From Chiloscyllium plagiosum (Eukaryota), in NCBI RefSeq assembly GCF_004010195.1, contig NC_057719.1, positions 9,158,037 to 9,222,036 on the forward strand: DNA of 64,000 nucleotides. Direction: 5' to 3'. Each line of letters starts with the position of its first letter. Within the stretch, counting starts at the first letter, position 1. The position numbers were made by a program, and so were the translations under genes. Below, piece after piece: positions 4,321-62,980 of this stretch. Below the pieces are notes generated by a model. The model made no database searches and was not told the origin of the DNA. It saw nothing but the letters and a program-made list of their open reading frames with translations.

Positions 4321-4453
4321 AAGGCAGAAGTGGGTACTGCAGATGCTGGAGATTAGAGTCAAGATTAGAGCGGTGCTGGAAAAGCACAGCAGGTCAGGCA
4401 GTATCCGAGGAACAGGATAATCGACGTTTTGGGCCAGAGCCCTTCATCAGGAA
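4321..4453 (-). mobile_element. PLE terminal fragment with mutated hammerhead core
   Basis: Minus strand CTGATGA-A-GGGC-TCTG-GCCC-aAAAC-GTC; aacagtc occurs on both flanks. Confidence 0.75.
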
Positions 4454-5378
4454 GCAAACAGTCCACAGAGTCTACTCAAAGGGAATCTCTCTGAATTACA
4501 GCCGAGTCCATTAAAACAAAGGGATGATTTTCACCATATATCTCAGGCGCTGAGCGGTTTATGTTCGATTGTTTCCAAAAATGTGAAGAGAATTACTTTC
4601 CAGGAAACTTTCCCAAGATTCTACGACATTCTAACAACAATCATTCCCAAACTTCACCAAAAACAATCACCCAAACAGAATTAATGTTTCGGTTTTCCAT
4701 CTAATTCAACACCTTCTAAGTCAGTGTTTTCCAAATTTTCTCCAACTTTGAAACCATGTCAAGTCTTAAAACTTGACCTGACTTCTCAATCTCGGGAGCT
4801 GGGGCCTGTGAGTAGCAACTTATACATTTTGCACTGTACTCATTTGAATGCATGTGACAGTAAAGCTAATTCTACCTCTGTTCTGTTAGAGAGTGGGGAA
4901 ATCAGCAAGGATAACTTGGTCGGATAGTTCCACAATGGCTATGGCTGTCTCAGTGCTCACGGCCTGAAAGTTCCAGCTTGTCATTCCACTTGGGATCCTG
5001 ATGACCATATTTCAGGCAGATCTGTTTTAACAATCATCGGGAGAAAAAGAGGTGTGTTTTGTTGTGGGCATCTTGCTCAGGTACCATCTTGGCCAGAATG
5101 AGCAAATGAGGCTAGGGAGAACACCATCACCTGCAGGAGAGAAGACAAAATGGGCTCCTTTCACCTTATGAGTACAGGAATCATTGAATCCCTACTGTGT
5201 GGAAAGAGGACATTTGTTCCTTCGAAGAACACCCACCCAGACCAAAGCCCATCCTACCCTCAATTAAACATGGCCAAACCACCTAACTTGCACATCTTTT
5301 GGACTGATGAGGCAGAGTTCTTTTGCTCAAAGGCATTAATGAACCAGATGGCTCTTTAATGATAAATTTACAGGTGCA

Positions 5379-5704
5379 ATTAGATTAGATTAGATTAGAT
5401 TACAGTGTGGAAACAGGTCCTTCGGCCCAACAAGTCCACACCGACCCGCCGAAACGCAACCCACCCAGACCCATTCCCCTACATTTACCTCTTCACCTAA
5501 GACTACGGGCAATTTTGCATGGCCAATTCACCTGACCTGCACATCTTTGGACTGTGGGAGGAAACCGGAGTATCCGGAGGAAACCCACGCAGCCACGGGG
5601 AGAATGAGCAAACTCCACACAGTCAGTCGCCTGAGGTGGGAATTGAACCCGGGTCTCTGGTGCTGTGAGGCAGCAGTGCTAACCACTGTGCCACCGTGCC
5701 GCCC
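5379..5704 (-). mobile_element. Full-length HE1 V-SINE
   Basis: tRNA-like head (A box TGGCACAGTGGT, B box GGTTCAATTCC), V-domain, CR1-like tail and (TAATC)n; caattag on both flanks. Confidence 0.93.
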
Positions 5705-6194
5705 AATTAGGCTAGCTTGTTATTCAAAATTCACCATCTGCCATGCTGGGAGTTGAACCCACATCCCTGGAACATTAGTCTGAGGTTCTAGATTACAACG
5801 CCAGTGACATTCTGATTAGATCAGTGCCTGCTCCTCTAGACATGTCCAATCACAGCGGGCATCAATTAACCATAAAACTCAATTTTCACATTGACAACAC
5901 ATCTATTTAATGTCAATTTGCAACCTTGAGCAAAAGCAGCCTCCAGAATCCCTATGACTGACAGTGAACAGATCGTGACCAAACTACAGCAAAGTCTCCC
6001 AGGAAAAGTCGGGTCCTTTCTCCAGCAAACAGTGGGGGTAGTGGAGGAAGGTTCCAGACCCCAAATGAATTGCATGACATATCAATCCAAATCACTTACA
6101 ATGGTAAAGTGGTGGGTAGAAGTTGGGAGGGCTATGAGTGTTGGAAAAGGGGCAAAAGAATGGTGTTGTAGATTACCTCCTTAGCTCAATAATT

Positions 6195-6640
6195 GTGGCA
6201 GCCTCAGTAGTTAGGACTGCTGCCTCACAGCGTCAAGAACCAGGGTTCTATTCCACCCTTGAGTGACTGTCTGTGTGGAGTTTGCCTGTTTTCCCTGTGT
6301 CTACATGGGTTTCCTCCACAGTTCGAGAGTGTGTAAGTTAGGTGGATTGGTCATCATGAAGGGCTCCTGCCTGAAACATAAATTTTCCTGTTCCTCGGAT
6401 GCTACCTGACCTGCTGCACCATTTCCTCACCTTTTCCAGCACCATTCTCATCTTGACTCTAATCTCCAGCATCTGCAGTCCTCACTTTCGCCATGCTAAA
6501 TTGCCCCATAGTGTCCAGAGATGTGCAGGCTAGGTGAATTAACCATGTGAAATACAGACCTACAGGGTTGGGATAGAGAGTTGGTATGACTCACGGGCCG
6601 AATGGCCTGCTTCCACACTATACAGATTCCATGAATCTTG
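6195..6640 (+). mobile_element. HE1-related SINE with a nested PLE terminal fragment (about 6355-6491)
   Basis: SINE breaks at ggattggtcat and resumes at gccatgctaaattgccc. Confidence 0.75.
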
Positions 6641-7887: not shown

Positions 7888-8002
7888 GGCAAGTCAAAAA
7901 GTGTGGCGCTGGAAAAGCTTATGCCTGAAACATTGACTCTCCTGCAATCCTGATGGAGGGCTTAAGCCCAAAACGTCGATTCTCCTGCTCCTCGGACGCT
8001 GC
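7888..8002. mobile_element. Rearranged PLE terminal fragment
   Basis: aatc-CTGATGg-A-GGGC-TTAA-GCCC-aAAAC-GTC-gatt; core mutated. Confidence 0.65.
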
Positions 8003-8004
8003 TA

Positions 8005-8820: not shown

Positions 8821-9423
8821 ACTTACACTGGAAGTGGAGTGAAGAATAGGTACTCGATCACAGCTATTGTTCTGTGTCTCTACTGCAACAGCACTGAGAT
8901 TAATCAACTCAAAAGCCTGGGGGGACCCCAGAAAAGAATATATATACAAACATATATATAAATTGAGCAAGGCTCACTGGAGCTCACTGATGCCAGGTAG
9001 TCATTTTTCATATGTAACAATCACAGAACTGTGTCTGGCGTCTCTGCGTTTCAGCGAGTTGCTTCAGGTACAGTCGACAGGCAAAGGGTCTGAGTCAATC
9101 AGCTCACCTCAGAGATCTTCTGTCTTCTCTAAGTGACTGGTGGCATACATGGATCTTTTACTGAGGATTGTGAGCCGCATTTACTCTTTTCATGCTCCAA
9201 CTGACCTCCACGTTTGGATGCTCAGCCACCGTCTATGCCAAGGGACCTGCTTTGCTCCCCCTGCTTCAGATTAACAATTACGCCCCTCCCCCTACCGGCC
9301 TGCCCCAACCCACCTCCCCGTCCTAGCGACAAAGTCTCACGCCCACCTCTCCCCCTTCCCACCAGTATATGTCACCTTCTGCAGCTTTGCCTCCACCCCC
9401 TCCTTTATCACTGCTAAAAAAAA

Positions 9424-9503
9424 CACACAACACCAGGTTATACTCCAAAAGGTTTATTTGGAAGCACTAGCTTTCAGAGTGCAACTCCTTCGTCAGGTAA
9501 GTA
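9424..9503 (-). ncRNA. PLE-type minimal hammerhead ribozyme motif (family D terminus)
   Basis: Minus strand 9499-9465: tac-CTGACGA-A-GGAGT-TGC-ACTCT-GAAA-GC-TA-gtg. Core intact; helix III is a palindromic AGCT; helix I is only 3 bp. Confidence 0.6.
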
Positions 9504-9667
9504 GTCTGTAGCTCATGTGTGTTCTGAAATGTTTATATTACGTAGCCCATCGTTGTGGCTCACAGCAATGAGAATAACATACATTTATGTCTTGTTTTTA
9601 CAGTGGCAAACCATCCCAAGATGCTTTGCAGGATCTTCATTAGTGAGGAATTATGGGAAGGGCCTGA

Positions 9668-11081: not shown

Positions 11082-11305
11082 GTTAGCGAGTTTTGAGAAG
11101 ATTTGTAGCTCAGGTCGAGGTTCTGGATGTAAGTTTGCTCGCTGAGCTGGAAGGGCCGAAGGGCCTGTTTCCACACTGTAATGTAATCTAATCTAATCTA
11201 GAAAACTAGCCACCAGGATACATGAACATCAACTAGTCACAAAAAGACATGACCCTCTCTCACTGTTGTGGTTCTGTTCGCCGAGCTGGAAGTTTGTGTT
11301 GCAAA
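11082..11305. mobile_element. Penelope-like element fragments with an HE1 tail inside
   Basis: 11200-11262 (+) reads RKLATRIHEHQLVTKRHDPLS, the R..EH motif of the GIY-YIG endonuclease. Flanked by two copies of ..ttcg/ctcg-c.gagctggaag terminal-like sequence; HE1 tail at 11151-11200. Confidence 0.7.
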
Positions 11306-13946: not shown

Positions 13947-13949
13947 ATA

Positions 13950-14225: not shown

Positions 14226-14483
14226 TGACTTGGACTGTTAGACTTCTTTCCACATCTTATGGCCTGGTGGCTGCCAACATTAATCTGCCCTTCTGCAAGG
14301 ATGAATCTTTTCTTTCTGAACTGGACCTGTCTGTAGCCTGTCTCCATCTGTTTTCCTTTGGGTTGTAAAAGCTTTACTTAGTAAATATTCCAGCAATCAC
14401 CAGGTAGTGAACTCAAGTGGTCATTTATCTTAGGTCTCATGACTTCATGGAAGCGCTGTTTGAACTCTCTGCTAAAACAAAAT

Positions 14484-14698
14484 GAGAGTCGAGAGTGGGG
14501 TGCTGGAAAAGCGCAGCAGGCCAGAGAGCATCCGAGGAGCAGGAGAATCGATGTTTTGGGCATAAGCCCTTCATCAGGAATGACTGGTGAAGGCCTTAGG
14601 CCTGAAATGTCGACTCTGCTGCTCCTCGGATGCTGCCTGACGTGCTGTGCTTTTCCAGCACCACACTCTCGACTCCGATCCCGAGTCTTCACTTTCTA
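14484..14698. mobile_element. Palindromic PLE-derived element with two facing hammerhead-like cores
   Basis: Arms gagtcgagagtg.ggtgctggaaaagc..gcatccgaggagcag and the reverse complement; ccttcatcagg...ggtgaaggccttaggcctgaaatgtc in the centre. Confidence 0.8.
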
Positions 14699-14779
14699 CT
14701 AATAAAAAAATTAGTAGTTTAAAAAAAAAATCACCTTCACTGAACTGAAAGCCAAAGACTCATTTACCTCGACAAAGTC

Positions 14780-14961
14780 CCTCCTCCCTACCTTTTATCT
14801 TAGCCTGCTTGGCACACCCTCCTCATTCCTGAAGAAGGGCTTATGCCCAAAACGTCGATTCTCCTAAAAAAAAGCTCCTTGGATGCTGCCTGACCTGCTG
14901 CACTTTTCCAGAAACACCTTTTTCAGCTCTGATCTCCAGCATCTACAGTCCGCACTTTCTC
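14780..14961 (+). mobile_element. PLE 3' terminus
   Basis: Pyrimidine tract, then cattc-CTGAAGA-A-GGGC-TTAT-GCCC-aAAAC-GTC-gatt and ..ctccagcatct.cagtcc.cactttctcc. Confidence 0.8.
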
Positions 14962-15541
14962 CCATTATAACTCAAGTTCCAAGCTGATACTAATAATATA
15001 TTAATATAAGAATATATTTCAAGCCTTCATCATACTAAACCTAGGTTCACCGTATTTAGGTACTGAATGTCGAAAAGGGACTGACCAAGAAAGCCAAAAA
15101 GGTAGAAAGTGCCCATAAACTCAAGAGTGGAGTGAATGATTTTTTGGACAAAGAGATGGCACAATACAGAATCTTGATTGCCAGCAGTTTTGCCTTTTCA
15201 TTTTAGCAGTTAGTGCAGAGATAAATGGGTCCAGCAGGTTTTTTCACACAGCTGTTACAAAATAAACAAACCAGAGCATAGCTGAGCTGAGAGAACTGGC
15301 CACTCCCCTTTCATTGTACAATTGGTTTATTTTTAAAACGAGAAAGCCTTCTGCCTAAGGCAGTATCTGTTAGTCATAAACAAATTGGCCCTGAAACCCT
15401 TCAACTCCCAACTTTTTGGAGTTTGTGTCTTTTATGATCTCTCTGAAAAAGAAAGCCAAGGACAGCATGACCTTGTTAAAGGAGCAGCTTCTTCCCACCA
15501 GGTTGTTATAATCCAACAGGTTTATTTGGAAGCACAAGCCG

Positions 15542-15850
15542 AGGTGGCACGGTTGCTCAGTGGTTAGCACTGCTGCCTCATAGCACCAGGGTCCCAGGTT
15601 AAATCCCAGCCTTGGGCGACTGTGTGGAGTTTGCACATTCTCCCCGTGTCTCTGTGGGTTTTCTCCAAGTGCCCCGGTTTCCTCCCACAGTCCAAAGATG
15701 TGCAGGTCAGGTGAATTGGCCACGCTAAATTGCCCATAGTGTTAGGTGCATTCGTCAGAAGGAGATGGGTCTGGGTGGGTTACTCTTTGGAGGATCGTTG
15801 TGGACTGGTTGGGCCGAAGGGCCTGTTTCCACACTGTAGGGAATCTAATC
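15542..15850 (+). mobile_element. Full-length HE1 V-SINE
   Basis: Head ggtggcacgg..gctcagtggttagcactgctgcctca; tail gggcctgtttccacactgtagggaatctaatc. Confidence 0.92.
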
Positions 15851-15934
15851 TTTCGGAACACTGTTTCCTCGTGTGGTGAACTTCACCTGATGAAGAAGCA
15901 GTGCGTCAAAAGCTTCTGATTTCAAATAAACCTG

Positions 15935-16428
15935 TTGAAACTTGAAAGGGTTCAGAAAAGATTTACAAGATTGTTGCCAGGGATGGAGGATTTGAGCTAT
16001 CGGGAGAGGCTGAACAGGCTGGGGCTGTTTTCCCTGGAGCATCGGAGGCTGAGGGGTGTCCTTATAGAGGTTTACAATATTATGAGAGGCATGGAAAGGG
16101 TAAGTAGACAAAGTCTTTTCCCTGGGGTGGGGGAGTCGAGAACTAGGGGGCATATGTTTAGGGAGAGAGGAGAAAAATATAAAATGGACCTACGGGGCAA
16201 CGTTATCACACAGAGGGTGGTACGTGTATGGAATGAGCTGCCAGAGGAAGTGGTGGAGGCTGGTACAATTGCAACATTTAAGAGGCATTTGGATGGGTAT
16301 ATGAATAGGAAGGGTTTGGAGGGATATGGGCCGGGTGCTGGCAGGTGGGACTAGATTGGGATGGGATATCTGATGGGCATGGATGGGTTGGCCCGAAGGG
16401 TCTGTTTCTGTGCTGTACATCTCTATGA
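15935..16428 (+). mobile_element. CR1 3' end
   Basis: KLERVQKRFTRLLPG..LEHRRLRG.LIEVY..TQRVVRVWNELP..FKRHLD; tail ctgtacatctctatgac. Confidence 0.93.
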
Positions 16429-17444
16429 CTATAACCTGGAGTCATGTGACCTCTGACCTTGTCCATCCCAATTCAACACTGGCACCTCCATATTATTCCT
16501 ACTGAGTTTGTCAAACACCATCTCAGAATGTTCCGCTGTATAGGAATATTTCAAGGATTTATAGAGTGGAAGTCCATCCATGTGAAAATGAAAGACATAA
16601 ATAATAGGAACCAAGGAAGCATTCAGGTTAAGCAAGCAAATTGCAAACAGCTTATTTTTCTACAAACGTAAGAAGTTATGGAGTCAAAAGTAATTTAAAG
16701 AGAAGCAAATGGTGGTGGGAAGGCAGGTATGAAAAGCTAAGTCAATGGGAACAGTGGGTATGATCCTTTCTAATAACATGAAACGCAGGCAGTGTCATCT
16801 AAAAAGTTAATTTAAGATAGAAATTCTGGAGGATCAGCAAGTGACGTATGGAACAGTTTCCGCATCACTCTCCACATAACAAGGTAATGACTGCTGATGG
16901 ATTTGCACTAACTATAGCAGAAGTCATTTTCTTATCTCCTTAGCTCCAAATATACCACCCGTAAACACACTTTACCTTCCCGCTGTGTTGAGACAAGACT
17001 TAACTTGGGTTTGCTGGACGAGAGAAGATTAAGGAGAGATCTAATTGAGATTTTTGAGGTCATGAATGCAATTGTGAGTGCAGATTGAGGAAAACATTTT
17101 CTTCTGGTGGGCCACTGGAATTTTAGATTGGAACTAGGCTATCTGGGGATGTAGTTAAAGGGCATTTTTTTCAGATTTTGAAAACATGAAACTCCCTCCC
17201 AGAAAATGTCATTAAGGTTACAAGCTGAGTCACAATTTCAAAACTGGAATGTATTGATTTTTGCTGGAGACAAGATCTGGAAGCAGATGGCTGAGTGAAT
17301 GGAGCTGGGGTACTGTTCAGCTACAATCGCATTAAACAGCAGTACAGCTCAGTGCAAAGGATGGACCAACTGACCACTGCTGTGGCTATGACTCTGTTCC
17401 CTTCCTTCTGCAGCAAGGCAAAATGTGGCCATCATCCAACAATT

Positions 17445-18985: not shown

Positions 18986-19106
18986 CAATACCCTCATGAT
19001 TGCTTCAATTGAACCTACCTCCTCCACATTTCCAGGGACCTCTCAGAACCCAGGGTTCACGAATCTCAATAGTGCTGCTTCGTCAACTGACACCAAATGC
19101 TCAAAA

Positions 19107-19300
19107 TTCTGGATTAGTGGTGCTGGAAGAGCACAGCAGTTCATGCAGCATCCAAGGAGCAGTGAAATCGACGTTTCGGGCAAAAGCCCTTCATCAGGAA
19201 TCGTCGATTTCGCTGCTCCTTGGATGCTGCTTGAATTGCTGTGCTCTTCCAGCACCACTAATCCAGAATCTGGTTTCCAGCATCTGCAGTCATTGTTTTT
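19107..19300. mobile_element. Palindromic PLE-derived element with intact hammerhead core and 15-bp TSD
   Basis: accaaatgctcaaaa at 19092-19106 and 19301-19315. Minus strand 19197-19170: CTGATGA-A-GGGC-TTTT-GCCC-GAAAC-GTC. Confidence 0.88.
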
Positions 19301-21439: not shown

Positions 21440-21650
21440 ACTTGTGTTGGGCTCTGTCTTCCCCTATACACTCACTCCATTCCCCCCATTCCCTGTCATC
21501 AGCATAAATACCAGCTTTTCCAAGCTGCTGTCACATCTGAAGAAAAGTCACTGGATTCGAAATGTTAACTCTGTTTTCTCCAAACGGGTGCCGACAGGCC
21601 TGCTGAGTTTCTCCAGCAATTTCTGTTTTTGGTTGCTTCAGATCTCCAGT
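21440..21650 (+). mobile_element. PLE 3' terminus, family B
   Basis: Pyrimidine-rich tract, then CTGAAGA-A-AAGTC-ACTG-GATTC-GAAA-TG-TT-aactctg and cctgctgagtttctccagcaatttctg. Confidence 0.65.
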
Positions 21651-26309: not shown

Positions 26310-27582
26310 AATATATGAGACATGGTTAGTAAGTTTGTGGATGACACCAAAATTGGTGGGATATTGGACAGTGAAGAAGGTTATCTAAGATTACAAAGAG
26401 ATCTTGATCAATTGGGTCAATGGGCTGAGGAGTGACCGATGGAGTTTAATTTGGGCAAATGTGAGGTGTTGCATTTTGGTAAAACTAACAAGGACAGGAC
26501 TTATTCAATGAATGGTAAGATGCTGGATAGTGCTGTAGAATAGGGAGACTGAATGAAGTGCAAATTACTGCAGATGCTGGAATCTGTTCTGAAAACAACA
26601 AATGCTGGAGGTCACAGTGGGTCAGGCAGCACCCATGGAGAGAGACCAAGCTAGCATTTCGGGCCTGGATGGTCTCCAGCGTGTGATCTCCAGCATTTTT
26701 TGTTTTCAGAGAGACCTATAGGTTCAGGTACATAATTCTTCACAGGGTGGTTGAGAAGGTGTTTAGCAAGCTTGCCTTCATTGCTCAGACCTTTGAGTAT
26801 TGAAGTTGTGATGTCATGTTGAGATTGTACAGGGCATTGGTGAGGTATCTTCTGGAGTATGTGCACAGTTCTTATCTGGTCGACAGGATGGACATTATTA
26901 AGCTGGAGAGGGGTCAGAATAGATTAGCTGGGAATGGGGGGTTGACTGGATAGGCTGGATAGACTGTAACTTTTTTCACTGGTGCATAGGAGGTTGAGGA
27001 GTGACCCTGTAGAGATTTATAAAATTCTGAAGCGATTACATAAGGTGAAAAGCAAAGGTCTTTTTTCTAGGGTGGGGGTGTTCAAAACTAAGGGGCATAT
27101 TTTTTATGGTGAGAGGAGTAAGTTTTAAAAAGGAAATGAGGGGGTAACTTTTTTTACACAGAGAGTGGTTTGTGTGCAAAATAAATTGCCAGAGGAAGTG
27201 GTGGATGCAGGTACAGTTACAACAATTCAAAAGCATTTGGTGAAGTACGTGAACAGGAAAGATTTAGAGGGATATGGGGCAAATGCAGTCAAATGGGACT
27301 AGTTTAGTTTGGCACATGGTTGGCGTGAGATTAGAGTGGTACTGGAAAAGCACAGCAAAGTCAGGCAGCGTCCGAAGAGCAGGAAAATCGATGTTTTGGG
27401 CAGGAGCCCTTCATCAGAAAAGGTCGATTTTCCTGCTCCTAAGATGCTGCCTGACTTGCTGTGCTTTTCCAGTACCACTCTAATTTTGACTTTGATCTCC
27501 AGCATCTGCAGGTCTCACTTTCGCCTACATAGTTGGCATGGACTAGTTGGGTCTGTTTCCATGCTGTAAGACTCTATTACTC
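26310..27582 (+). mobile_element. Decayed CR1 3' kilobase with two PLE-derived insertions
   Basis: KFVDDTK..MEFNL..through to the 3'UTR; inserts at about 26553-26710 and 27326-27527. Confidence 0.85.
27326..27527. mobile_element. Palindromic PLE-derived element
   Basis: Arms gattagagtggtactggaaaagcacagc / gctgtgcttttccagtaccactctaat; acatggttggc and acatagttggc on the flanks. Confidence 0.8.
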
Positions 27583-28790: not shown

Positions 28791-30220
28791 CTTGATGACA
28801 AAGCAATGTTCCCAGCACTGACCCCAGATGGTAATTAAAAGCAGATCAGCCCCTGAATGATGGAATGAACTGGAGGGGATGAGCAGCCAGCTCCCACTCT
28901 GGGTTTGTCTGTTTTGTTTGGAGAGTGGTTGAAGTGGAGGAAATGCACTACTGGTTGGGAAATAAAACCATGTACATTGTGACACCAGGCAGGACTCATT
29001 CTTGATCTGAGTTTGAGGATTGTTCCCCTATCTACCTGACCACACTCAGGTGACCTGGGCACAAATTCTGGGCTGTTATCGCAATGGCGAGTGCTGTACT
29101 GCCCACGATGCCCTCCCTTAAGTAAAATGAGAGTCTTTTAAAGGAGATTCATAGAGTCAGAAAAGGCCCTTCGGCCCATCAAGTCTACATGACTATAACT
29201 AAAGTGCATTCATCCCAACTTCCTGCACTTGTCCCATTTTCTTGAATGTTATGACATTTGAAGTACTCGTCCAGATACCATTTAAAGGTTGTAAAGCTTC
29301 CAGCCTCCATGCCTTCCCAGGGCTCCTTAGTGCCTTGGCTAATAATTATCCTTCGACCAATGTTACAAAACCAAAACAGATAAGAAACTTGCTGCTTTTG
29401 GGATCCTGCAGTGTGCAATATGACTGGTGCCTTTTCTCACATCTGAATGGTAATCGAGGATGTGACAGACACTACTGAAATGCAAATCTTCCTTTGCTTT
29501 CTCTCGCTCCAGTGCATCATCGGCCCCCAAACCCTCATCCTATCCAGTGTCTTCGTCTGAACAGTTCGGGGAGACCTTGCATTCTTTTTGCCAGTTTTCA
29601 CACCATTGCGAAAACAACACAAATTCCACTATTCCAGTAGCCAGGCCTCCTATAGAAAGCAAAGCTCCTCAAGAAGTTATGTAATACAGCAGAGATCTAA
29701 GATTATAATCCAATTTTAGGTGCAAGTACATTCCCACTAATTAACGCACATAGTTATTTTACACCAATCATTCATTTCAGGACGAAATGAAAAACTTTTC
29801 ACTCAGGTCTTAATTTGAACTCGTTGAGTCATGAAAGGGGAAAAATAAAATGGTGTGCATGCCTGACAGAGGACATTGAAATTAGACAAATGAGTCAAGA
29901 TGTTTTCTGCTTTTATTTGTCCCTAAATAGACAAGCCTTTGACAAGTGCACTCAGACAAGTGCTGAACGTACAGTGTGGCCTGATTAATTAATCCATGTT
30001 GCGTGAACGTTTCTCGATGTCACAATTCGACCTTTGTTACAAATGTGTTCTTTTTTTAAAATAAGATGCCATTATGAAAAGGCTTGGCTCAGCGACTAGT
30101 GCTGTACTTAGGGGCCAGCCAGGGGTATGGAGGCGGCAACAAAACATAATCCCAGATGGGTAGGAGCAATTTACTGCAGACACCGGAATCTGAACTGGAA
30201 ACAAAAAGTGCTGGAGATCA

Positions 30221-30437
30221 CAAGAGAAAATGCTGGAAAATCTCAGCAGGTCTGGCAGCTGACATTTCGAGTCTAACTGACCCTTTGTCAAAGCTGTCGA
30301 GCTTTGACAAAGGGTCAGTTAGACTCGAAACATCAGCTCTTTTCTCTCCTTACAGATGCTTCCAGACCTGCTGAGATTTTCCAGCATTTTCTCTTTTGGT
30401 TTCAGACTCCAGCATCCGCAGTCATTTGCTTTTATCC
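30221..30437. mobile_element. Palindromic PLE derivative with head-to-head hammerhead-like motifs
   Basis: 39-bp inverted repeat 30257-30295 / 30300-30338; agtg(g)ctggagatca duplicated on the flanks. Confidence 0.82.
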
Positions 30438-30714
30438 AGTGGCTGGAGATCATAGTGGGTCAGGCAGCATCCACGGAGAGAGAGCAAGCTAATGTTTTGA
30501 GTCTAAATTTGGAGATGCCGGTGTTGGACTGGGGTGTACAAAGTTAAAAATCACACACCAGTTTACAGTCCAACAGGTTTAACTGGAAGCACTAGCCTTT
30601 GGAGCGCCACTCCTTCATCATCCTTAATCAATCACCTGGACTATAACCTGGTATTGTGTGATCTTTAGTTTTGAGTTGAGGTGACTTGTTATCAGACCTA
30701 CGATGAAGAGTCAT

Positions 30715-31049
30715 CATAGAATCCTTACAGCGTGGAAACAGGCCCTTCAACCCAATAGGTCCACACCAACCCTCTGAAGAGTAACCTATCCAGACCCATT
30801 CTCCTATATTTACCTCTGACTAATGCACCTAACCAACACATCCCTGAACACTATTGGCAATTTAGCATGGTCAATTCACCTAATCTGCACATCTCGGGAT
30901 CATGGGAGGAAACTGATGCGCCCGGAGGAAACCCGCACAGACACAGGGGGAGAATGTGCAAACTCCACATAGACAGTTGCCTGAAGTTGGAATTGAACCA
31001 GGGTCCCTGATGCTGTGAAGCAACAGTGCTAAGCCAACATGCCACCCCT
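30715..31049 (-). mobile_element. HE1 V-SINE
   Basis: Full tail-to-head match. Confidence 0.88.
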
Positions 31050-31459
31050 TCATCTGGACTCAAAACATTAGCTTGCTTACTCTCCATGCAATGTGCCTGA
31101 CCCGCTGTGATCACCAGCACTTTTTTGTTTTCCTTACAATCTCAAATGGTCTTTCTTCAGCAATATAACCAACTGTGTGATATTTGCCCTGATTGCCGTT
31201 TCTGTTACCCTGATGGTTTATCTGCCATCTCTGTCATACAGTGGCAGAGAGGTAGGGTTACATAAGATCCACGTCTTTCTATTTTACCTTGACGATATAT
31301 TGAAAGGGAGAGATGGGCATTGTTTCAAAAAAGAAGACAAACAAGGAGTTGTCCACAGCTTTAGGAAAGCAAGCAAAGCTTATGGGTTGCATATCAGATG
31401 CTTCTTCTCTTTGCGGGCACTGACAAAGACTCATCACTTGTGTATGTTTGCCCAGAGTC

Positions 31460-31671
31460 GAGAATGTGTTGCTGGAAAAGCACAGCGGGTCAGGCAGCAT
31501 CCGAGGACCAGGAGAATTGACATTTCGGGCTGGACACCTTCATCAGAAAAGGGGCTGACGCGGCCAGAAACGTTGATTCTCCTGCTCCTCAGATGCTGCC
31601 TGACACGCTGTGCTTTTCCAGCACCACACTCTCGACTCTGATCTCTAGCATATGCAGTACTCACTTTCTTC
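31460..31671. mobile_element. Palindromic PLE-derived element with 17-bp TSD
   Basis: tatgtttgcccagagtc at 31443-31459 and 31672-31688. Confidence 0.85.
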
Positions 31672-32070
31672 TATGTTTGCCCAGAGTCAGGGTTTTTAAC
31701 TAGACCAATTGTCTTGGGTTCAGGGGAGCTCAGCATGGCAACAAGCCTTGACTTTATACAACAAATTCCACTGGAGGTAAATGAAAATGACTGGACCATG
31801 CGGTTGGTGCAGGGAGGAGATGGTATAGCATCAATTAGCTCATAATCCATGAGCCCTCTCTGGCTTGCATGTTCAAATCCCATCATTGAAGCTGGTGGAG
31901 TTTTAATCCATTTCCTAAATCTGTATAAAGTGGAGTTCTGAAAACCAGAATCAAAACATTAACTGTGTTTCTTTCTCCAAAGATGCTGCCAGATCCACTG
32001 AGTTTCGTCAGCATTCTCTCTGTTTGTTTCAGCTTTATAGCATCTGCAGTATTTTATGTTTTTTTAAAAA

Positions 32071-40565: not shown

Positions 40566-40699
40566 GGAGAAAGTGAGGACTCCACATGCTGGAGATTAGA
40601 GCCGAACGTGTGGTACTGAAAAAGCACAGCCAGTCAGGCAGCATCCAAGGAGCAGGAGAGTCGACATTTCGGGCAAAAGCCCTTTATCAGGAAAGGGCT
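40566..40699 (-). mobile_element. PLE terminus with 10-bp TSD inside an old CR1
   Basis: gaggttatta at 40556-40565 and 40700-40709; minus strand CTGATaA-A-GGGC-TTTT-GCCC-GAAA-TGTC. Confidence 0.8.
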
Positions 40700-41193
40700 G
40701 AGGTTATTACTCTCAGATGTAGAATCCAGAACGAAGAGGCAAAGTCATAGCATCATAGAGATGTACAGCACAGAAACAGACCCTTCGGTCCAACCCGTCC
40801 ATGCCGACCAGATATCCCAACCCAATCTAGTCCCACCTGCCAACACCCGGCCCATATCCCTCCAAACCCAAAGTCTCAGGATAATGTGGCTGAGATGGCA
40901 GAGCAATTTCTTCCCCCAGATGGCTGTTTAGAACTCTCTACCAGGCTGTTCTTCCAACAAGGTAAGGAAGAGGAATCAGCTCTACTTTTTAAAAAATCCC
41001 CTCTTGTTCAGTCACAACAAATATTTGTTATTTTGTTTTTCAGTTAAAATGAGATAGAACGAAAAAAATCATGCAACTCCATGTTAGACTATATTCTTTT
41101 TTACTTTTTATTTATTAATTTTGCAGGATATGGGCATCCTTGGTTGGCCCTCTCTAATTGCCCTTGAGAAGGTGGTGGTGAGCTGCCTTCTTG

Positions 41194-41823
41194 GAGAGAC
41201 TGAGGACTGCAGATGCTGGAGCTCAGAGTCGATAAAGTGTGGCGCTGGAAAAGCACAGCGGGTCAGTCAGGCAGCATCCGAGGAGCAGGAGAGTCGACAT
41301 TTCAGGCAGAACCCTTCATCAGAAGCGGGGAGGGGGAAGAGAGATAAACAGAGGGTGGGGTGCTAAACAAGGCCACCCGCAAACTGGAGGAAGAACATCA
41401 CAGCTTCTGCCTTGGGAGTCTATAGCCACAAAGCCTCAACATTGAATTCACCAGTTTCCATATCTCCCCTCCTCCCACCCATCCCAGATCCAACCCGGCA
41501 CTGCCCCCTTGACCTGACCTAACTTTCCCACCTATCTGCTCCACCTTCCCACCCGACCTCTCACCATCACCTCTTATGTGCATCCACCTATCACCATCCC
41601 ACCCACCTTCCCCACCGACCTATCACCATCACCTCCGACCTGCATCCACCTATCACCATCCCACCCACCTTTCCCCCAGCCACACAGCTCCCCCCACCAT
41701 TTATTTCTCAGCCTCCTTCCCCCTCCCCATTTATGACGAAGGCATTATGCCTCAAACATTGACTCTCCTGCTCCTCGGATGCTGCCTGATATGCTGTGCT
41801 TTTTCCAGCGCCACACTTTATCA
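41194..41823 (+). mobile_element. 5'-truncated Penelope-like element: inverted terminal repeat, ORF end, 3' UTR and terminal repeat
   Basis: About 41366-41460 reads KATRKLEEEHHSFCLGSL*PQSLNIEFTSF (PLE ORF C-terminus); 13-bp TSD agctgccttcttg at 41181-41193 and 41824-41836. Confidence 0.85.
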
Positions 41824-42597: not shown

Positions 42598-42745
42598 AAG
42601 CGAAAGGACTGAGGATGCTGTAAATCAGAAACAAAACTAGATGTTGCTGGAAAAGCTCAACAGGTCTGGCAGCATCTGTGCAGAGAAATTAAAGTTAACG
42701 TTTCAGGTCCAGTACCTAAGCTTTTCCAGCAACTTCTGTTTTGGA
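42598..42745. mobile_element. Family B palindromic PLE derivative
   Basis: gttgctggaaaagct..gttaacgtttcaggtccagt..agcttttccagcaac. Confidence 0.7.
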
Positions 42746-51020: not shown

Positions 51021-51235
51021 GAGACAGTGAGGACTGCAGATGCTGGAGGTCAGAATTGAGAGTATATTGCTGGACAAGCACAGCAGGTCAGGCAGCATCC
51101 AAGGAGCAGGAGAATCGATGTTTCAAGCAAAAGCCCTTCAACAGGAATGGGGGCTCTGGCCCGCAACGTCAATTTTTCTGCTCCTTGGATGCTGCCTGAC
51201 CTGCTGTGCTTTTCCAGCAACACACTCTAACTCCA
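51021..51235. mobile_element. Palindromic PLE-derived element
   Basis: gtgaggactgcagatgctgg..gcatccaaggagcaggag..ctgctccttggatgctgcctgacctgctgtgc. Confidence 0.78.
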
Positions 51236-52064: not shown

Positions 52065-52489
52065 TAGTGTTCCAATGAAGCTCCACGGAAAGCTGAAAGA
52101 ACACCACCTCATTTTCCACTTTGGTGTTTTACAGCATCTGGGATACAATATTGAGTTCCATTACTTCAGACCATGACCGCTGTACTCCATCTTTCTCACA
52201 TGCCCCACCCTTGCCTGGCTATATCTTGTTGGTTTTGCTCTCAGGAGAGAGGCCTCCTTTTTACCACTGAACATTTACACATGCTTTATATCTCCATCTC
52301 TCCTTTGCTTCCATTCAAGGCCCCTTTGTCTTTTGCACCTCACAATCTGTTCCACCTGCTCTTTCACACCCTCTGTCTACAGCAATAAACCACCATTTTC
52401 CAGTTCCATTTAGTTCTGAAGAAGAGGCATACCAAATTTGGAATATTAACTCTGTTTCTCTCTCCACGAGTGCTGCCAGACCTGCTGAG
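52065..52489 (+). mobile_element. PLE 3' end, family B
   Basis: Frameshifted SNEA..KL.EHHLIFHFG.LQHLGYNIEF, then a pyrimidine UTR and a decayed ctgaagaagagg..attaactctg core. Confidence 0.7.
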
Positions 52490-54677: not shown

Positions 54678-55450
54678 GTCATAGAGTCAGACAGATGTAC
54701 AGCATGGAAACAGACCCTTCGGTCCAACTCGTCCATGCCAACCAGATACCCCAACCCAATCTAGTCCCACCTGTCAGGACCTGGCCCATATCCCTCCAAA
54801 CCCTTCCTATTCATATACCCATCCAAATGCCTCTTAAATGTTGCAATTGTACCAGCCTCCATCGCTTCTTCTGGCAGCTCATTCCATGCATGCACCACCC
54901 TCTGTGTGAAAAAGTTACCCCTTGTCTCTTTTATATCTTTCCTCTCTCACCCTAATTCCTGATTATCACCCTAATTCTCTCTCATTCCTGAAAAGGGCTC
55001 ATGCCCGAAACGTCAATTCTCCTGTTCCTTGGATGCTGCCTGACCTGCTATGCTTTTCCAGCAACACATTTTTAGCTCTCTCACCCTAAACCCATGCCAG
55101 CTAGTTCTGGACTCGCCCATCCCAGGGAAAAGACTTTGTCTATTTTTCCTATCCATTCCCCTCATAATTTTGTAAACCTCTATAAGGTCACCCCTCAGCC
55201 TCTGACACTCCTGAGAAAATAGTCCCAGCCTGTTCAGCCTCTCCCCATAGCTCAAATCCTCCAACCCTGGCAACATCCTTGTAAATCTTTTCTGAATCCT
55301 TTCAAGTTTTGCAACACCTTTCCTCGAGGAAGGATACCAGAATTGCATACAAAATTCCAACAGTGGCCTAACCAATGTCCTGCACAGCCGCAACATGACC
55401 TCCCAACTCCTGTACGCAATACTCTGACCAATAAAGGAAAGCATACCGGC
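54678..55450 (-). mobile_element. CR1 3' end with a PLE-terminus insertion (54956-55075)
   Basis: LVRPLLEFCMQFW..RLRGDLIEVYKIMRG; 14-bp TSD ctctctcaccctaa at 54942-54955 and 55076-55089. Confidence 0.9.
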
Positions 55451-56680: not shown

Positions 56681-56689
56681 ATTATGAAT

Positions 56690-56839: not shown

Positions 56840-56901
56840 GCAGTCACCAGGAGTGTGAGTTGATTAAAATACAAGAGCAAGCCAGGTGAAGAGATGGTGA
56901 G

Positions 56902-57116
56902 TCGAGAGTGTGGTGCTGGAAAAGCACAGCAGGTAAGGCAGCATCCAATAAGCAGCAGAATTGGTACTTCAGACACGAATCCTTCATCCTGATGAAGGGC
57001 TTATGCCCGAAACATCGATTGTCCATCTCCTCGGAGGCTGCCTGACCTGCTGTGATTTTCCCACACCACACACTTGACTCTGATCTCCAGCATCTGCAGT
57101 CCTCACTTTCTCCTCC
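56902..57116. mobile_element. Palindromic PLE-derived element
   Basis: atc-CTGATGA-A-GGGC-TTAT-GCCC-GAAAC-ATC-gat; flanks gaagagatggtgag / gaagagctgatgag (12/14). Confidence 0.82.
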
Positions 57117-58334: not shown

Positions 58335-58656
58335 CAAAGTTCTCAAAGGCACGAAAGAGCTTCCAAAAAACAATTAGAAGCTGCCTCTTCTCTGCCATTT
58401 GGTTTCTTCTGCCACAAGACAAACTCCGAGGGAAACAAGAATAGAATCCTACAGCACGGAGACAGGCCCTTTGGCCCAAACTGGTCCATGCCGACCAAAA
58501 TGTCCATCCATGCTAACTCCATCTCCCCGCACCTGGCCCATATCCTTCTTAAGCACCTTTTTAAAATGTGGTGAGTTTTTGTGCACTGCCTGAAAAGATT
58601 GTGGAGACAGATTCAGTAGTAATTTTCAGATGTGAATAGACATTGTAAAGGGAAGC

Positions 58657-58838
58657 TAGGGTAGATAAGCAGGAGGCTGGAAGAACACAGCAAGCCAGGC
58701 AGCATCAGGAAGGTGGAGAAGTCAACGTTTTCGGGTGTAACCCTTCTTCAGTCCTCCTGACGCTGCCTGGCTTGCTGTGTTCTTCCAGCCTCCTGCTTGT
58801 CTACCTTGGATTCCAGCATCTGCCATTTTTTTTTATCT
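58657..58838. mobile_element. Palindromic PLE-derived element (divergent family)
   Basis: Arms aagcaggaggctggaagaacacagcaagccaggcagc and the reverse complement; minus strand CTGAAGA-A-GGGT-TAC-ACCC-GAAAaC-GTT. Confidence 0.8.
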
Positions 58839-59932
58839 CTGTAAACGAGAGCTGACAGGGCTATGGGAGAAAGAGTGAGAGATTTAGCCTCATTGGGAAC
58901 CCTCCCGTGAGGTGGCATATGCATGATAGGACATATCTCCTGTCATGTATGTGTGTTGAGTTGATGCAGTTTTCCTCTTTAATTCACACTAAAACATCAC
59001 GTTACATCATCCTTTCCATACCCTGAGTGGGCTCCTCACAAGGGGCTCGGGTTTCAGCCTTCCTCAATCATGACACTCGGAAGTCACTACATTAGGAGAT
59101 TTCCACTATCTATGCATCCCATTTCCACCCCTCTCGCCTTTGTGATCATCTAAGGGCAACTAGAGACAGGCAAGAAATGCTGGCCCATCTTTCACGAGCT
59201 ACAATCAGTTTTGAAGAAGGGTCACTGGTATCAAACGTTAATCATGTTTCTTTTCACAATTGCTGACAGACCTGCAGAATTTCTCCAGCAATTTCTGCAT
59301 TTGTTTTAGATCTTCATTCATTCATATTTCATTGTCTTACTTCGATCTTTCATCCAGATCTCTATGCTCTATTTCATAAACCCGTTCAAAGCCAAGCCTT
59401 ACTTGCCTCTCATCACTGTCTGGTCTTCATTTTAATTCTTGCATCGCTGCATTTTCTGCCCCAGTTCTGATCCTTTTCTGTGGATAGAAAATAGATACAC
59501 AGGGCCCTTCCAGTAACGAACCTGGTGCAGTAGTAACAGCAAGGATAATACAGGGTTACCAAAGCAACCACGTCCTTCCCGAGACACATGTCCACTATTC
59601 CTTTCATAGATCTGCTGACAGATGTTCAGGCTTTGTTAGTAGCATTGTTGGGACATAATTTTATTTGTTTCATTTTCGAATAACTCATCACTTACAATAT
59701 CAGTGTGAAAAAGGTGCAAAACTGCTGATTTCACAAATTGTTATGACAACCTTGAGTAGTTAGGAGTGCAGTTTACCTGTGAGAGCTGAAAAGGGAATCT
59801 TTCCTGCTTACATCCCTCAAAGGTTTTTGAAAGCCCTTCACGGCAAATGAGTAATTTTGAAATTTCTGCCAATAGTTGGACAAGTATAGCAGCCACTTTG
59901 TTTACGATGATGCATCACTAATTAGAAACACA

Positions 59933-60437
59933 TAAATCATAGAATCCCTACACTGGGGAAGCAGTTCATTTGGCCCATCGCATCCATTCTGACCCTCTGT
60001 ACAGCACCCCATCCAGACCCTAACCCTGTAACCCTGCATTCCCCATGGCTAATCCACCTTGCCTGAAAATCGCTAGACACTATGGGCAATTTAGCATAGG
60101 CAAACCACCTAACCTGCTCATTTATTTATTGATGGGATGGTTTGAAAGTGGAATTCTATACAGGAAACAGGGAGAGAAGACCATAAACCATGAGACATAG
60201 GAGCAGAAATTAGGCCATTCAGCTCTTTGACTCTGCTCTGCCATTCCATCATGGCTGATAAGTTTCTCAACCCCATTCTCCCTGTAACCTTTGATCCCCT
60301 TGATATTCAAAAACATACCTATTTCAGTCTTAAATATGATTAGATTAGATTCCCTACAGTGTGGAAACAGGCCCTTCAGTCCAACACGTCCACCACCGAC
60401 TCTCCAAAAAGTAACCTACCCAGACCCATTTCCCTCC
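59933..60437 (-). mobile_element. Cluster of an HE1 tail (59933-60118), a CR1 3'UTR (60180-60338) and an HE1 tail (60338-60437)
   Basis: Matches to copies elsewhere in the window. Confidence 0.75.
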
Positions 60438-62302
60438 AACGAATACGACCACACAAAGGGAGGAGAGTTTCCTTCCCTCAAGAATGTTGGAGAATCCCAG
60501 ATGGATTTTCACAACATTCAGCAAACTATCCTGGTTGCAATTCCCAAAATATTGCACAATTAATGTACTGAAATTCCACCAACAGCTACAGTGGGATTCA
60601 AAGCCACGCACCAGAGCATTGGTTCAGGCCGTTGACATGGCAACATTACCCAGAGGGCCACTGCCTCTCCTACAAAGCTCCAAGGAATACAGGCCCAACC
60701 TATTCTCATAAGACAAACCCCTCATCCCAGGAATTGGCTGACGGTACCGAGAGAGGCAGAGACTGAGTTGGGAAGAAGGTGAAAGGGAACTTTGAGGCAG
60801 TAGACTGAGGTTCGATGTTGTTCCCGCCTGCTGAGGTCTAAGGCCTGAAGGATAATGCGGTGGTGATTCGAGTAAAGCCTCACTGCACCAGAACGTAATT
60901 AAGAAGTAAATCATTGAAAATAATTAGAAGGAATTCTGTGCAATAATTGAAAAGGATTCAAACAGTCAATCCGACAAAATCCCTGGGAGTGGAGTATGTT
61001 TTCCGGAGCTGGCACTTTTACAGCCATTTTAATTTAAGCCAATGCACCAGTAATAACTTTGAAATCTAATTTATAAAACAATGATGCAGGGTCCCAATAA
61101 ATTCTCTTATCAGAGTCACGGCCCATGAGACAGGGCTAGAAATTGAGCCCGCATAAAGAAGATTAGAGACAGAGCCACCCATTAACGACAGCTGGAATAA
61201 CAACCAAGTCCAAAGGACAAAGCAGGAAGGCAGCTCCAAGTCTGGATCTATGGGGCATGCAGTAAAAAGCAGGTGAAGGATCAGAAACAAAAACCTGGAA
61301 CTAGTGAAAGCGGAATATTCAGTGGATATAAGGGACGGCAGGGAAGACTGAATATTGATATAAGATATTGGTGAGAAACAGCTTGAATATGACAGACCAC
61401 TCAGAAAGTACTGCTCCCAGCACTAGCTGTAGTACCAGCCAAAATCAATCAGAGGTAGGTCAGTAACTGGACAAGACAAAGGTAAAATGCAAGCCAAGAC
61501 ACTTTAATTAATAAACGCATAAACCCATTTGTTAATCAACATAACATCACCCATGTTCCGCATCATATAAAATGATATCCTTGCCAGCAATAAATCAAAA
61601 TGACTGCACAGCTGACTGGTAACCTTTGACTTCTGTAATAACCAAGCTTGTGTTGTACCTTCTACACTGGGATGGAATGGTGGAGCCTGTGCACCGTAAT
61701 AATTATTCTTTCATTATTTTTTTGTACACAGTGCCTGGTCAGAACAATGAACGACTTCAGTGCTAAATTACCCCGAGCTAATATGAGCTACCGAAATGTG
61801 TGTTCAGTCTAGGGTATCAGAGTCTGCAGTGAGTGAACTATTACAGCTCATGGGCCAATGACATTCAAAAAAAGACAAGATCGTTGCAGGGATATCATCA
61901 GGGAATTGGGAGAATTGTTTGTTTAAATCAGGCAAATGGTTGCAATCTGCTTCCTGTTTTTTTCTCACTTGCTGCACTGTGGGCACTGGCCTGTACTGGA
62001 CAATGATTGCCCTTCTCACAGGCACTTCTCTCTGGTGAGATCTCATTCCTCTCTGCTTTGAGAAAATTCCACGCTAATCATTCCTTGGAGTGCGACAACA
62101 ATGTCTATAGATTGTGCTTCACTCACATACTCGTACTTAAGAGCTTTCCCTTCAGGCATCATTCCTCTCTTGAATTTCCAGGATATTGGATGTCTTCACT
62201 TGCACTCTTAGAAAGAATACTTTCTTCCTGAGCGGGTACCGCTCCAAATCCCAAACGTATCTCTCAATTGCCCTTAACTTAGAGTCAGACTTTCTGCAAT
62301 TC

Positions 62303-62980
62303 TGGTGCGGCTGCTCAGCAGTCAACACTGTTGCCAGACAGCCCCAGGGACTTGGGCTTGATCCCAGCCTCAGGTGACTGTCTGTGTGGAATTTGCACAT
62401 TCTTCCTGTGCCTGGGTGCTCCTGTTTCCACCCACAGTCCAAAGATATGCAGGTCAGGTGGATTGGCCATGCTAAATTGTCAGCAGTTCTCCAGCTTCCT
62501 CATTTCCCCTCCCCCCACCTTATCTCAGTCCCAACCCCCGGATTCAGCACCGCCCTTTGACCTGCAATCTTCTTCCTGACCTCTCCGCCCCCACCCCCTC
62601 TCCAGCCTATTACCCTCACCCTCACCTCCTTCCACCTATCATATTCCCAGCACCCCTCCCCCAAATTCCCACCCCCTATCCTTTATCTCAGCCCACTTGG
62701 CACACCAGCCTCATTCCTGAAGAAGGGCTTATGCCCGAAACGTCGATTCTCTTGCACCTCGGATGCTGCCTGGCCTGCTGTGTTTTTCCAGCACCACATT
62801 TTTCGACTCTGGTCTCCAGCATTTACAGTCCTCACTTTCTCCTAAATTGTCGGCAGTGTCCTGGGATGTGCAGGGTAGGTCGATTAGCTATTGGAAATGC
62901 AGGCTTATGGGGATAGGGTAATGGGGATGATCTGGGTGGGATGTTCTTTAGAAGTTGTGTAAACCTGATAGGCCAAATGG
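62303..62980 (+). mobile_element. HE1-related SINE split by a PLE insertion
   Basis: Breaks after ggccatgctaaattgtc and resumes at 62842. Confidence 0.8.
62488..62841 (+). mobile_element. PLE 3' end with intact hammerhead core and 16-bp TSD
   Basis: CTGAAGA-A-GGGC-TTAT-GCCC-GAAAC-GTC at 62717-62744; ctaaattgtc(a/g)gcagt at 62472-62487 and 62842-62857. Confidence 0.88.

Follow-up and report, generated by a model that had tools for sequence, protein, structure and literature searches.

Minimal hammerhead ribozymes in abundant leader copies of Neptune-type Penelope-like elements of Chiloscyllium plagiosum, and where those copies begin

We analysed a 64,000-nucleotide stretch of the Chiloscyllium plagiosum genome (RefSeq assembly GCF_004010195.1, contig NC_057719.1, forward-strand positions 9,158,037 to 9,222,036; hereafter the window), in which a reading made from the sequence alone had noticed a recurrent hammerhead-ribozyme core. 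The six families of short repeats that carry this core are, almost beyond doubt, leader copies of Neptune-type Penelope-like elements (PLEs) with minimal hammerheads. Copies begin preferentially just before the hammerhead core and hardly ever at its cleavage site, and a TATA-like box lies at a near-constant distance upstream. On sequence grounds, the hammerhead likely forms the tip of a capped element RNA. We regard it as probable that the short copies (stubs) are, as a complete explanation, run-off reverse transcripts of that capped, uncleaved leader RNA.

Results

Copies were found by profile searches seeded from the window and then by BLAST with 11 subfamily references, and positions within them are counted from C3 of the hammerhead core (with C3 at 62717, for example, -4 is 62713). 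The window holds 43 arms in 32 pieces, 11 of which are head-to-head pairs. These correspond to about 29-30 insertions; pieces outnumber insertions because some single elements were split by later insertions, as at 30167-31138. The pieces fall into six families (A, 15; B, 1; C, 1; D, 6; E, 5; F, 4): the sequence-only reading was right that several divergent families are present, and its count of at least four is corrected to six. Its figure of about 20 elements, or one per 3 kb, matches the 21 arms that cover the entire core, among 38 that extend beyond the cut site. All invariant core bases are retained in 9 of these 21 arms, and in 76 of 123 in the genome sample described below. Two window arms also keep stem II, the two-base palindrome and helix I by an alignment test, and three cores (9496-, 19197- and 62717+) are intact by a descriptor that permits G-U at the base of stem II. 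A dense load with few intact cores, as had been proposed, is therefore what was found (43 arms, 2-3 intact cores).

A de novo descriptor applied at four strictness levels gave 8, 7, 3 and 3 matches in the window, against 0.61, 0.09, 0 and 0 in 100 dinucleotide shuffles; a strict scan (CTGANGA, paired stem, GAAA) returned six true cores and three chance rows. The five stem II sequences quoted earlier were all confirmed in position and strand. The family at 30312, described as CTGANGA, reads TTGACAA, with a U3-A8 pair replacing C3-G8, and the family B copy at 58733 (C3 58751) has the quoted stem together with an inserted A and a missing helix I 5' strand. Rfam at E<=1 gave 13 matches in the window, none of them a hammerhead, and its microRNA-precursor matches are the long inverted pairs. 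This result indicates that standard RNA annotation misses these motifs, in line with the earlier suspicion that the termini are overlooked. No tandem array of the unit, each with a hammerhead, was found in the window: copies are single or head-to-head, and the closest same-strand good cores are separated by at least 5.7 kb.

The load of the genome (3.56 Gb) was estimated from an unbiased sample with 761,456 called bases, for which 40 large contigs supplied 80 segments of 10 kb each at preset positions. It holds 211 arms and 29 descriptor-intact cores (0 in five shuffles). Extrapolation gives about 0.94 million arms (0.82-1.07) and 129,000 intact cores (86,000-185,000), the ranges being Poisson limits only. 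Arm density in the window is about twice that of the sample (38 arms, with 17.7 expected).

The conserved core (CUGANGA...GAAA...UH, or its U3-A8 variant) is present in 11 of 11 subfamily consensuses, as are an extra unpaired A after A9 and the pair G10.1-C11.1. The core pair is C3-G8 in ten consensuses and U3-A8 in family C, and the cleavage triplet is GUC, GUU or CUA. Pairs 10.2-10.4 of stem II exchange among G-C, A-U, C-G and U-A. The palindromic 15.2-16.2 is CG in nine consensuses and GC in two, one CpG-decayed majority base having been restored in those of C, D2 and E. Helix I has 4 bp in B, C, E and F, whereas family D has 3 bp and family A 2+1 bp; its pair 2.1-1.1 is C-G or U-A, and 2.2-1.2 is U-A, C-G or A-U. 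The consensuses agree with the minimal type I hammerhead, with an extra base after A9 and a loopless palindromic helix III, that had been recognized at the outset; the palindrome is found in all of them, although both window copies of family C have lost theirs by CpG decay. Stem II covaries across families, as had been noticed, and helix I covaries as well. Among eight natural copies, 97% of cells are paired and six of nine pairs (three of four in helix I) change on both sides, but these copies were picked for pairing with family D excluded, so that the shuffle test is inflated and the covariation count merely illustrative. Folds of single motifs are barely stable, and in three of four cases the monomer did no better than its shuffles. 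For an RNA spanning the 19106-19269 pair the predicted fold is a single hairpin (-135 kcal/mol); since the motifs of a pair lie on opposite strands and the whole forms a single long hairpin, pairs are not dimer partners. A seventh hammerhead-bearing family (L289:9725-9766 (-), L365 and L177) is distinguished by its longer stem II and by a TATAAATA box some 50 nt upstream of C3. A core-less piece of it lies at 11086-11149 (-) of the window, and genome locus L280 contains an RT piece just 23% like that of family A.

Walking upstream from family A through genome copies led to a reverse transcriptase (RT; Pfam RVT_1, E 2e-10), and to a Cys-rich linker followed by a GIY-YIG endonuclease domain (E 2.6e-4; at 21.6 bits, one bit below the curated cut-off of 22.6). 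The single open reading frame (ORF) from RT to GIY-YIG was read from broken genome copies, and the window holds just its last codons. A matching endonuclease end lies 230-440 nt upstream of B, C, E and F and farther upstream of D. The linker CxxxxCxxC, then CxxC before YIGET, occurs in A, B, D, E and F; in C the endonuclease end alone was seen. With RT and GIY-YIG upstream of the same termini in genome copies, the Penelope-like origin suggested earlier is upheld. The named proteins nearest to the endonuclease are from bamboo shark (83% and 76%) and whale shark (61%). On the element protein NCBIfam gave a weak RT match alone; Pfam gave no match on the mutated endonuclease of one genome copy (L043), and the RT piece had no match among solved structures. 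The Cys-rich linker marks Neptune and Nematis (Craig 2021, bioRxiv 2021.04.23.441226), and this linker is our basis for calling the elements Neptune-type.

In long copies the hammerhead-bearing segment follows the GIY-YIG ORF, and in others it precedes the ORF start, which identifies it as a pseudo-long terminal repeat (pLTR). The ORF-start side was checked in family A, where 10 copies have a leader that continues as far as an ORF start lying 159-164 nt beyond C3. In the A1 and A2 leaders an ATG in loop II (62731 onward, for example) opens a short frame, which overlaps the main start out of frame in copies that reach the ORF; the other A subfamilies lack this ATG.

The 5' ends of the 211 sample arms are unevenly placed: 27 run past the reference, 18 begin at -109 to -11, 72 at -10 to -1, 40 at 0 to +9, 29 between +10 and a point 3 nt short of the cut, 3 no more than 2 nt away from the cut and 22 beyond it. 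The 72 starts at -10 to -1 compare with nine at -40 to -11 (p 9e-34). In 41 of 43 near-start single arms the upstream DNA is common to no other copy, so the pile-up of starts does not reflect a missing subfamily. Because starts lie before the core and hardly any at the cut, inserted copies appear to derive from uncleaved RNA. The commonest start is -4 in family A (29 of 140 unbiased short copies) and in family C (27 of 35 query-selected copies), and 15 of 44 family D copies start at -8/-9 and 8 at -3.

At the other end, copies stop in two groups, about +81 to +98 and +120 to +131 from C3. The two places are about 35 nt apart and make stubs of 90-135 bases. Head-to-head pairs account for 95 of the 211 arms, and 44 of 54 pairs join a long arm to a short one. 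Of the 95 paired arms, 47 have a flanking repeat of at least 9 nt, as do 8 of 41 single arms with near-start 5' ends; among mismatched flanks the figure is 1 of 280. The two groups of 3' ends and the long/short pairs correspond to the one-sided PLE tail, and fit the two internal priming sites of the anole Poseidon element considered below. Within the window, the nested cluster at 30167-31138 suggests insertion into existing leaders: one family F arm is interrupted by a family C pair with an 11-bp duplication, the F junction is occupied by a family D pair (30507-30673), and a short interspersed element (SINE) lies within stem II of the other family F arm, on the plus strand.

Genome-wide there are also 209 exact short direct tandems, in which the first unit stops 0-12 nt beyond the cut and the second begins at about -4 (L373-L402). 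Among 30 examined, with no control search, the first unit ends at the cut in two and otherwise 1-12 nt beyond it (1-3 nt past the cut in 10, 8-12 nt in 12). A further set (L184-L212) consists of a leader, 200-400 nt of ORF start and a second leader from near -4, often after a G. Eleven copies have an ORF fragment joined immediately to a second leader that begins near -4, an arrangement that would be compatible with a switch from the tip of the RNA onto a different template.

When scored against the TATA consensus TATAWAWR, the best match within 100 nt upstream falls at -40 to -33 in 11 of 11 subfamily consensuses, D1 having tied matches further upstream. Family C scores 8/8, and D, E and F score 7/8 (chance of at least 7 in that window 0.038 each), in upstream DNA that cannot be aligned across C, D, E and F. 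The -4 start of A and C lies 29-33 nt below the box; in family D, which has its start cluster at -8/-9, the box is 4-5 nt further up (-40/-39). Distant relatives were drawn from 80 metagenome loci with 19 sense-strand minimal hammerheads. A box of at least 7/8 is present in 13 of the 19, and in 8 of those 13 it lies at -44 to -33 (6 of 10 after merging near-twins, p 6e-4), a range that was chosen after the hits had been seen, which counts against this comparison. A TATA box with an initiator-like sequence has been described in one rotifer pLTR (PMC3846280).

The base preceding -4 was counted by hand in the first 100 of 5,724 family A matches that start at -4 without the native C: it is G in 65, A in 20 and T in 15 (26 G expected). 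Among 30 fetched family A loci, G precedes the start in 21, and the bases further up are mixed. Junctions of capped full-length L1 copies likewise carry an extra G (PMC11702581).

Single-cell poly(A) RNA, of a library type unsuited to mapping starts or cleavage, was examined in two runs: one placed no reads, and the other gave reads from both strands, with no pile-up at the cut site and no site where many molecules begin or end. Loose read 5' ends at -4 in one copy were set aside, the copy having private changes just upstream. Loose ends at 62713 (105 reads, 70 and 36 contigs) were rejected as RNA starts, being genomic junctions read through.

The catalytic G12 is deaminated in 18 of 115 family A copies, and other CpG sites are decayed at 17-23%. 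Being lost at the same rate as other CpG sites, G12 decays as a neutral CpG. Decay in the copies follows that of neutral DNA, and they do not form a family that spreads by itself.

Discussion

That a TATA-like box sets +1 at or just before helix I is, in our judgement, a reasonably likely model of the start site. Such a box, about 30 nt upstream, would place +1 at helix I or a few bases before it, which in the longest window copy makes 62713 the predicted transcription start. The element protein would bind downstream in the ORF, prime at about +90 or about +125 and run off at the cap, and copying of the cap would account for the extra G. On both sides of a staggered double-strand cut priming would occur, using the two internal sites, and joining of the resulting pair of run-off cDNAs would give head-to-head pairs. 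As the stubs lack both the box with the upstream promoter and the downstream protein-binding region, they would be dead ends that do not spread. The sequence-only reading had called them mini-elements; they form no class of their own, and are better described as dead-end short leader/terminal-repeat copies of full elements. The ribozyme itself would be maintained by selection on source elements alone.

Several findings weigh against this account. Start site, cap and cleavage in this genome are predictions deduced from sequence, and no intact full-length element was found among the genome copies. In A and B, the commonest families, the AT patch is weak (5-6/8; chance for at least 6, 0.22). The -4 peak is clear in A and C alone, B starting mostly at 0 or -2 and E and F being spread; the unbiased starts of family D tie (6 of 21 at -3, 6 of 21 at -8/-9); and 40 of the 211 arms begin at 0 to +9. 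A preceding G is also seen for 19 of 46 starts located elsewhere than at -4 (compared with 65 of 100, Fisher p 0.011); family C shows no excess of it (7 of 29), and in three copies whose duplication is clear the G forms part of the duplicated target. The Penelope element of D. virilis starts upstream of an intron, from a promoter that is internal and TATA-less (PMC2377424), and a start at the hammerhead is therefore not universal. Finally, private changes at non-CpG core bases (17 of 956, 1.8%) are fewer than in the rest of the leader (214 of 4,583, 4.7%); to account for this, one must assume either numerous rare source lineages or a degree of selection acting on the copies.

The strongest competitor, which we nevertheless consider unlikely, is ordinary 5' truncation of a longer RNA, with RT stalling, or microhomology joining, at the hammerhead or at a palindromic helix I strand. 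Heavy 5' truncation with adjacent inverted copies is a known pattern (Craig 2021), and the palindromic AGCT at which family C starts would favour fold-back joints. A spread of starts from -10 to +9, the want of a sharp -4 peak in B, E and F, and the frequency of G at other junctions as well are also what truncation might give. However, the enzyme would presumably find helix I already unwound when it meets the 5' strand, and starts fall to near nil upstream of -10, where a 30-nt stretch has 9 of them and the adjoining 10 nt have 72. Truncation moreover leaves unexplained the TATA box at fixed distance, both in unalignable upstream DNA and in the distant relatives, the family D cluster at -8/-9 and the G excess at -4.

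It is improbable that the stubs are a self-spreading non-autonomous family resembling retrozymes, SINEs or miniature inverted-repeat transposable elements, cut by the hammerhead from tandem or read-through RNA and moved by the Penelope protein. The very high copy number of a short unit and the 209 direct tandems recall the animal retrozymes that arose from Penelope terminal repeats, which are also reported in one cartilaginous fish (bioRxiv 10.64898/2026.07.22.740005). Yet the window is without a tandem array, the first tandem unit ends at the cut in 2 of 30, and copies retain the core 5' of the cut, which is absent from cleaved RNA, with 3 of 211 starting at the cut. Each insertion has its own junction and arm lengths, and the stubs match the leaders of full elements with the upstream box missing.

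We give still less weight to the boundary being an RNA-processing site, that is, a 3' splice site or a polyadenylation cut below a TATAAA variant signal. The 29-33 nt spacing suits the distance from TATA box to start better than that from polyadenylation signal to cut. An AG does follow pyrimidines at -4/-3 in B, C, E and F, and a D. virilis intron end maps to helix I (PMC4209133); but the AG is kept in the copies and a constant upstream exon is absent, A and D1 have no AG there, and a splice junction yields no extra G.

Least probable of all is that the dispersed copies are selected, working ribozymes cutting host transcripts: the estimate of about 130,000 intact cores, reads from both strands in one RNA run and the better keeping of non-CpG core bases than of flanking leader speak for it, against which stand the decay of G12 at the neutral CpG rate, the monomer folds no stabler than shuffles in three of four cases with a helix I of 2-4 bp, the burial of the motif of pairs in a hairpin, same-strand good cores at least 5.7 kb apart in the window, uncleaved monomers and weak dimers elsewhere (PMC4209133), and the inactivity of 8 of 9 Xenopus dimers (bioRxiv 10.64898/2026.07.22.740005).

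If the stubs are indeed run-off copies of capped leader RNA, that RNA would be sorted by cleavage some 32 nt from its cap, a slow reaction depending on protein or on dimer formation: uncleaved molecules would serve as insertion template, and cleaved, uncapped molecules would go to translation or decay. This template-or-message switch is our best guess at the ribozyme's most likely role, because cleavage in viral 5' untranslated regions (UTRs) can permit cap-independent translation (PMC13725137) and inefficient cleavage spares the template. The broadest form of the proposal could prove right or wrong with about equal chance. It holds that across animals the Neptune-type hammerhead is transcribed first, in a capped RNA that a TATA box some 30 nt further up starts at helix I or just before it, that a strong-stop-like cDNA primed within the leader usually inserts unchanged and has done so nearly a million times in this genome, each copy recording start and cap, that the pLTR resembles the U3-R of retroviruses, and that the ribozyme is a cap-removing switch and not a cutter of tandem precursors.

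The kind of ribozyme has been known since 2014 (Cervera and De la Pena 2014, PMC4209133), so the initial interpretation had the origin right and overstated the novelty. Like the minimal hammerheads of that paper, those described here have a loopless palindromic 15.2-16.2, an extra base after A9, G10.1-C11.1 and a short helix I; they likewise form many consensus families per genome, occur mostly as single dispersed copies and opposite-strand pairs, and include a U3-A8 variant, found there in Schistosoma. That work reported no cleavage of monomers and weak cleavage of dimers. The present set differs in coming from a cartilaginous fish, none being among the genomes named in the accessible part of the paper, and in its estimated 86,000-185,000 intact cores, compared with about 9,000 in Xenopus and 4,000 in coelacanth by a different descriptor. 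The internal mismatch in helix I of family A and the link between promoter and copy start are also without counterpart in that part.

As in endonuclease-bearing PLEs of the Neptune clade (Craig 2021, bioRxiv 2021.04.23.441226; Arkhipova 2013, PMC3846280), the parents encode RT, a Cys-rich linker and, at the C terminus, GIY-YIG. Their insertion units share with those of Neptune elements heavy 5' truncation, an inverted neighbour copy, a one-end tail of 30-40 nt and target duplications, but here truncation points are non-random and cluster at the first hammerhead bases. The rotifer paper attributes head-to-head joints to self-priming on an antisense template; for our copies, priming of both DNA ends on sense RNA would fit.

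In Poseidon from Anolis carolinensis (PAc; Frangieh 2024, PMC11167929), the protein acts on both strands, cutting and extending each; it takes uncleaved RNA as template, initiates at two internal positions and requires the RNA lying downstream of them. The elements studied here resemble Poseidon in a hammerhead at the pLTR-ORF junction, and would share with it two internal priming sites that define the tail, cutting and extension of both strands, and an uncleaved RNA template. Poseidon belongs to a different clade, and its ORF starts within stem II with a 126-nt leader before it, unlike the family A ORF start about 163 nt after C3; the accessible part of that paper maps no start site.

With non-LTR retrozymes (PMC7229834; bioRxiv 10.64898/2026.07.22.740005) the stubs have in common that they are short, non-coding, derived from PLE repeats, of high copy number and equipped with a type I hammerhead. 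Retrozymes, however, are arrayed in tandem as units of 170-400 nt, their hammerheads are mostly canonical and they have circular RNAs, whereas the stubs are single or head-to-head, carry minimal motifs and form no array. A self-cleaving motif at the front end with a proposed role in translation is also known from the hepatitis delta virus-like ribozymes of R2 and L1Tc (PMC6765202) and from hammerheads of viral 5' UTRs (PMC13725137). Those either cleave at or close to the 5' edge of their own motif or release the element from the transcript of a host; in the present elements the predicted cut would lie about 32 nt inside a capped RNA, and inserts would come from uncleaved RNA.

In the literature covered, which left most subscription papers outside the search, nothing was found that connects, in Penelope elements, the first bases of the hammerhead with a cap-like G or with a start site. 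Nothing was found on PLE hammerheads of sharks either, repeat databases being outside that search, and the supplements of PMC4209133 may list shark motifs. The PLE ribozyme cleaves poorly and is dispensable for insertion in vitro. If the proposal is true, the question shifts from whether multimers are cut to why an RNA would cut itself 32 nt from its own cap, and the proposal would also account for the predominance of lone stubs among such hammerheads in animal genomes and for the meeting of inverted copies at the hammerhead. Six families, including a vertebrate U3-A8 variant, and an estimated 130,000 intact cores provide a large natural set for covariation and junction statistics.

Features of the window

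Table 1. Hammerhead-bearing leader copies and related pieces in the window (positions count from its first base; a dot marks features on both strands)
Feature	Position	Strand	Remarks
Family A single arm, start 3 nt before core	4328..4453	-	G12 lost
Family A single arm, start within core	6358..6492	+	decayed
Family A short arm (7945-8002), preceded by degraded pieces	7892..8002	+	G12 lost
Family D single arm, start 9 nt before core	9418..9505	-	core intact by descriptor; C3 9496, triplet CUA, palindrome AGCT, 3-bp helix I
Family A head-to-head pair	14480..14674	.	two decayed cores
Family A copy extending 62 nt into upstream repeat, AT patch included	14767..14962	+	G12 lost
Two inverted family D pieces (15496-15539 -, 15884-15937 +)	15496..15937	.	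decayed
Family D piece without core	16427..16493	+	
Family A head-to-head pair	19106..19269	.	intact minus-arm core; C3 19197, start at -4 with extra G
Family E copy with 94 nt upstream	21447..21634	+	stem II decayed; TATA-like box retained about 35 nt before C3 (21537)
Family F head-to-head pair	26561..26709	.	truncated core
Family A head-to-head pair	27336..27525	.	G12 lost in arm bearing core
Nested cluster of family F arms interrupted by later insertions	30167..31138	.	
Family C head-to-head pair, U3-A8 cores (U3 30304+, 30291-)	30219..30434	.	4-bp helix I; both arms begin at -4; 11-bp target duplication; palindrome gone from both arms through CpG decay
Family A head-to-head pair	31456..31668	.	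flanking 17-bp target site duplication
Family E piece	31954..32050	+	truncated core
Family D piece without core	33111..33146	+	
Family A single arm, -3 to +125	40566..40693	-	G8 lost; 10-bp flanking direct repeat
Family A arm	41193..41322	-	invariant bases intact; stem II and palindrome decayed
Family A copy, upstream repeat long and pyrimidine-rich	41622..41815	+	decayed core
Family E head-to-head pair	42603..42742	.	truncated core
Family A head-to-head pair	51021..51228	.	decayed cores; 9-bp flanking direct repeat
Family E copy with upstream AT box	52373..52489	+	decayed
Family A single arm from -7	54981..55079	+	1-base core deletion; 9-bp flanking direct repeat
Family A head-to-head pair	56900..57113	.	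plus arm (C3 56989) with invariant bases, palindrome lost
Family B head-to-head pair	58651..58833	.	minus arm (C3 58751): A inserted after GAAA, helix I 5' strand absent
Family E single arm	59197..59306	+	decayed
Family A1 copy, longest in window	62487..62842	+	last endonuclease-ORF codons, 3' untranslated part, intact hammerhead, 125-nt leader with tail; C3 62717, predicted cut after 62744
AT-rich patch at TATA position	62682..62691	+	6/8 consensus letters; putative function
Helix I 5' strand	62713..62716	+	62713 is the commonest family A copy start

A piece of the family B 3' untranslated region lies at 41379-41474, beside two family A copies. Among other repeats, an inverted pair of SINE copies, which we take to be HE1-like, occupies 47958-48716, and the same SINE occurs many times in the window. 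Broken 3' pieces of the ORF of a long interspersed element, presumably CR1-like by its motifs, are found at 13583-14119, 15920-16354, 25027-25632 and 55013-55594; Pfam gave no match on two of these pieces, nor on five other window ORFs. A minisatellite of about 10.6 copies of 37 bp (49721-50113) adjoins a 33-N gap, with similar repeats beyond the gap, and a 105-bp perfect tandem duplication is present at 208-417.

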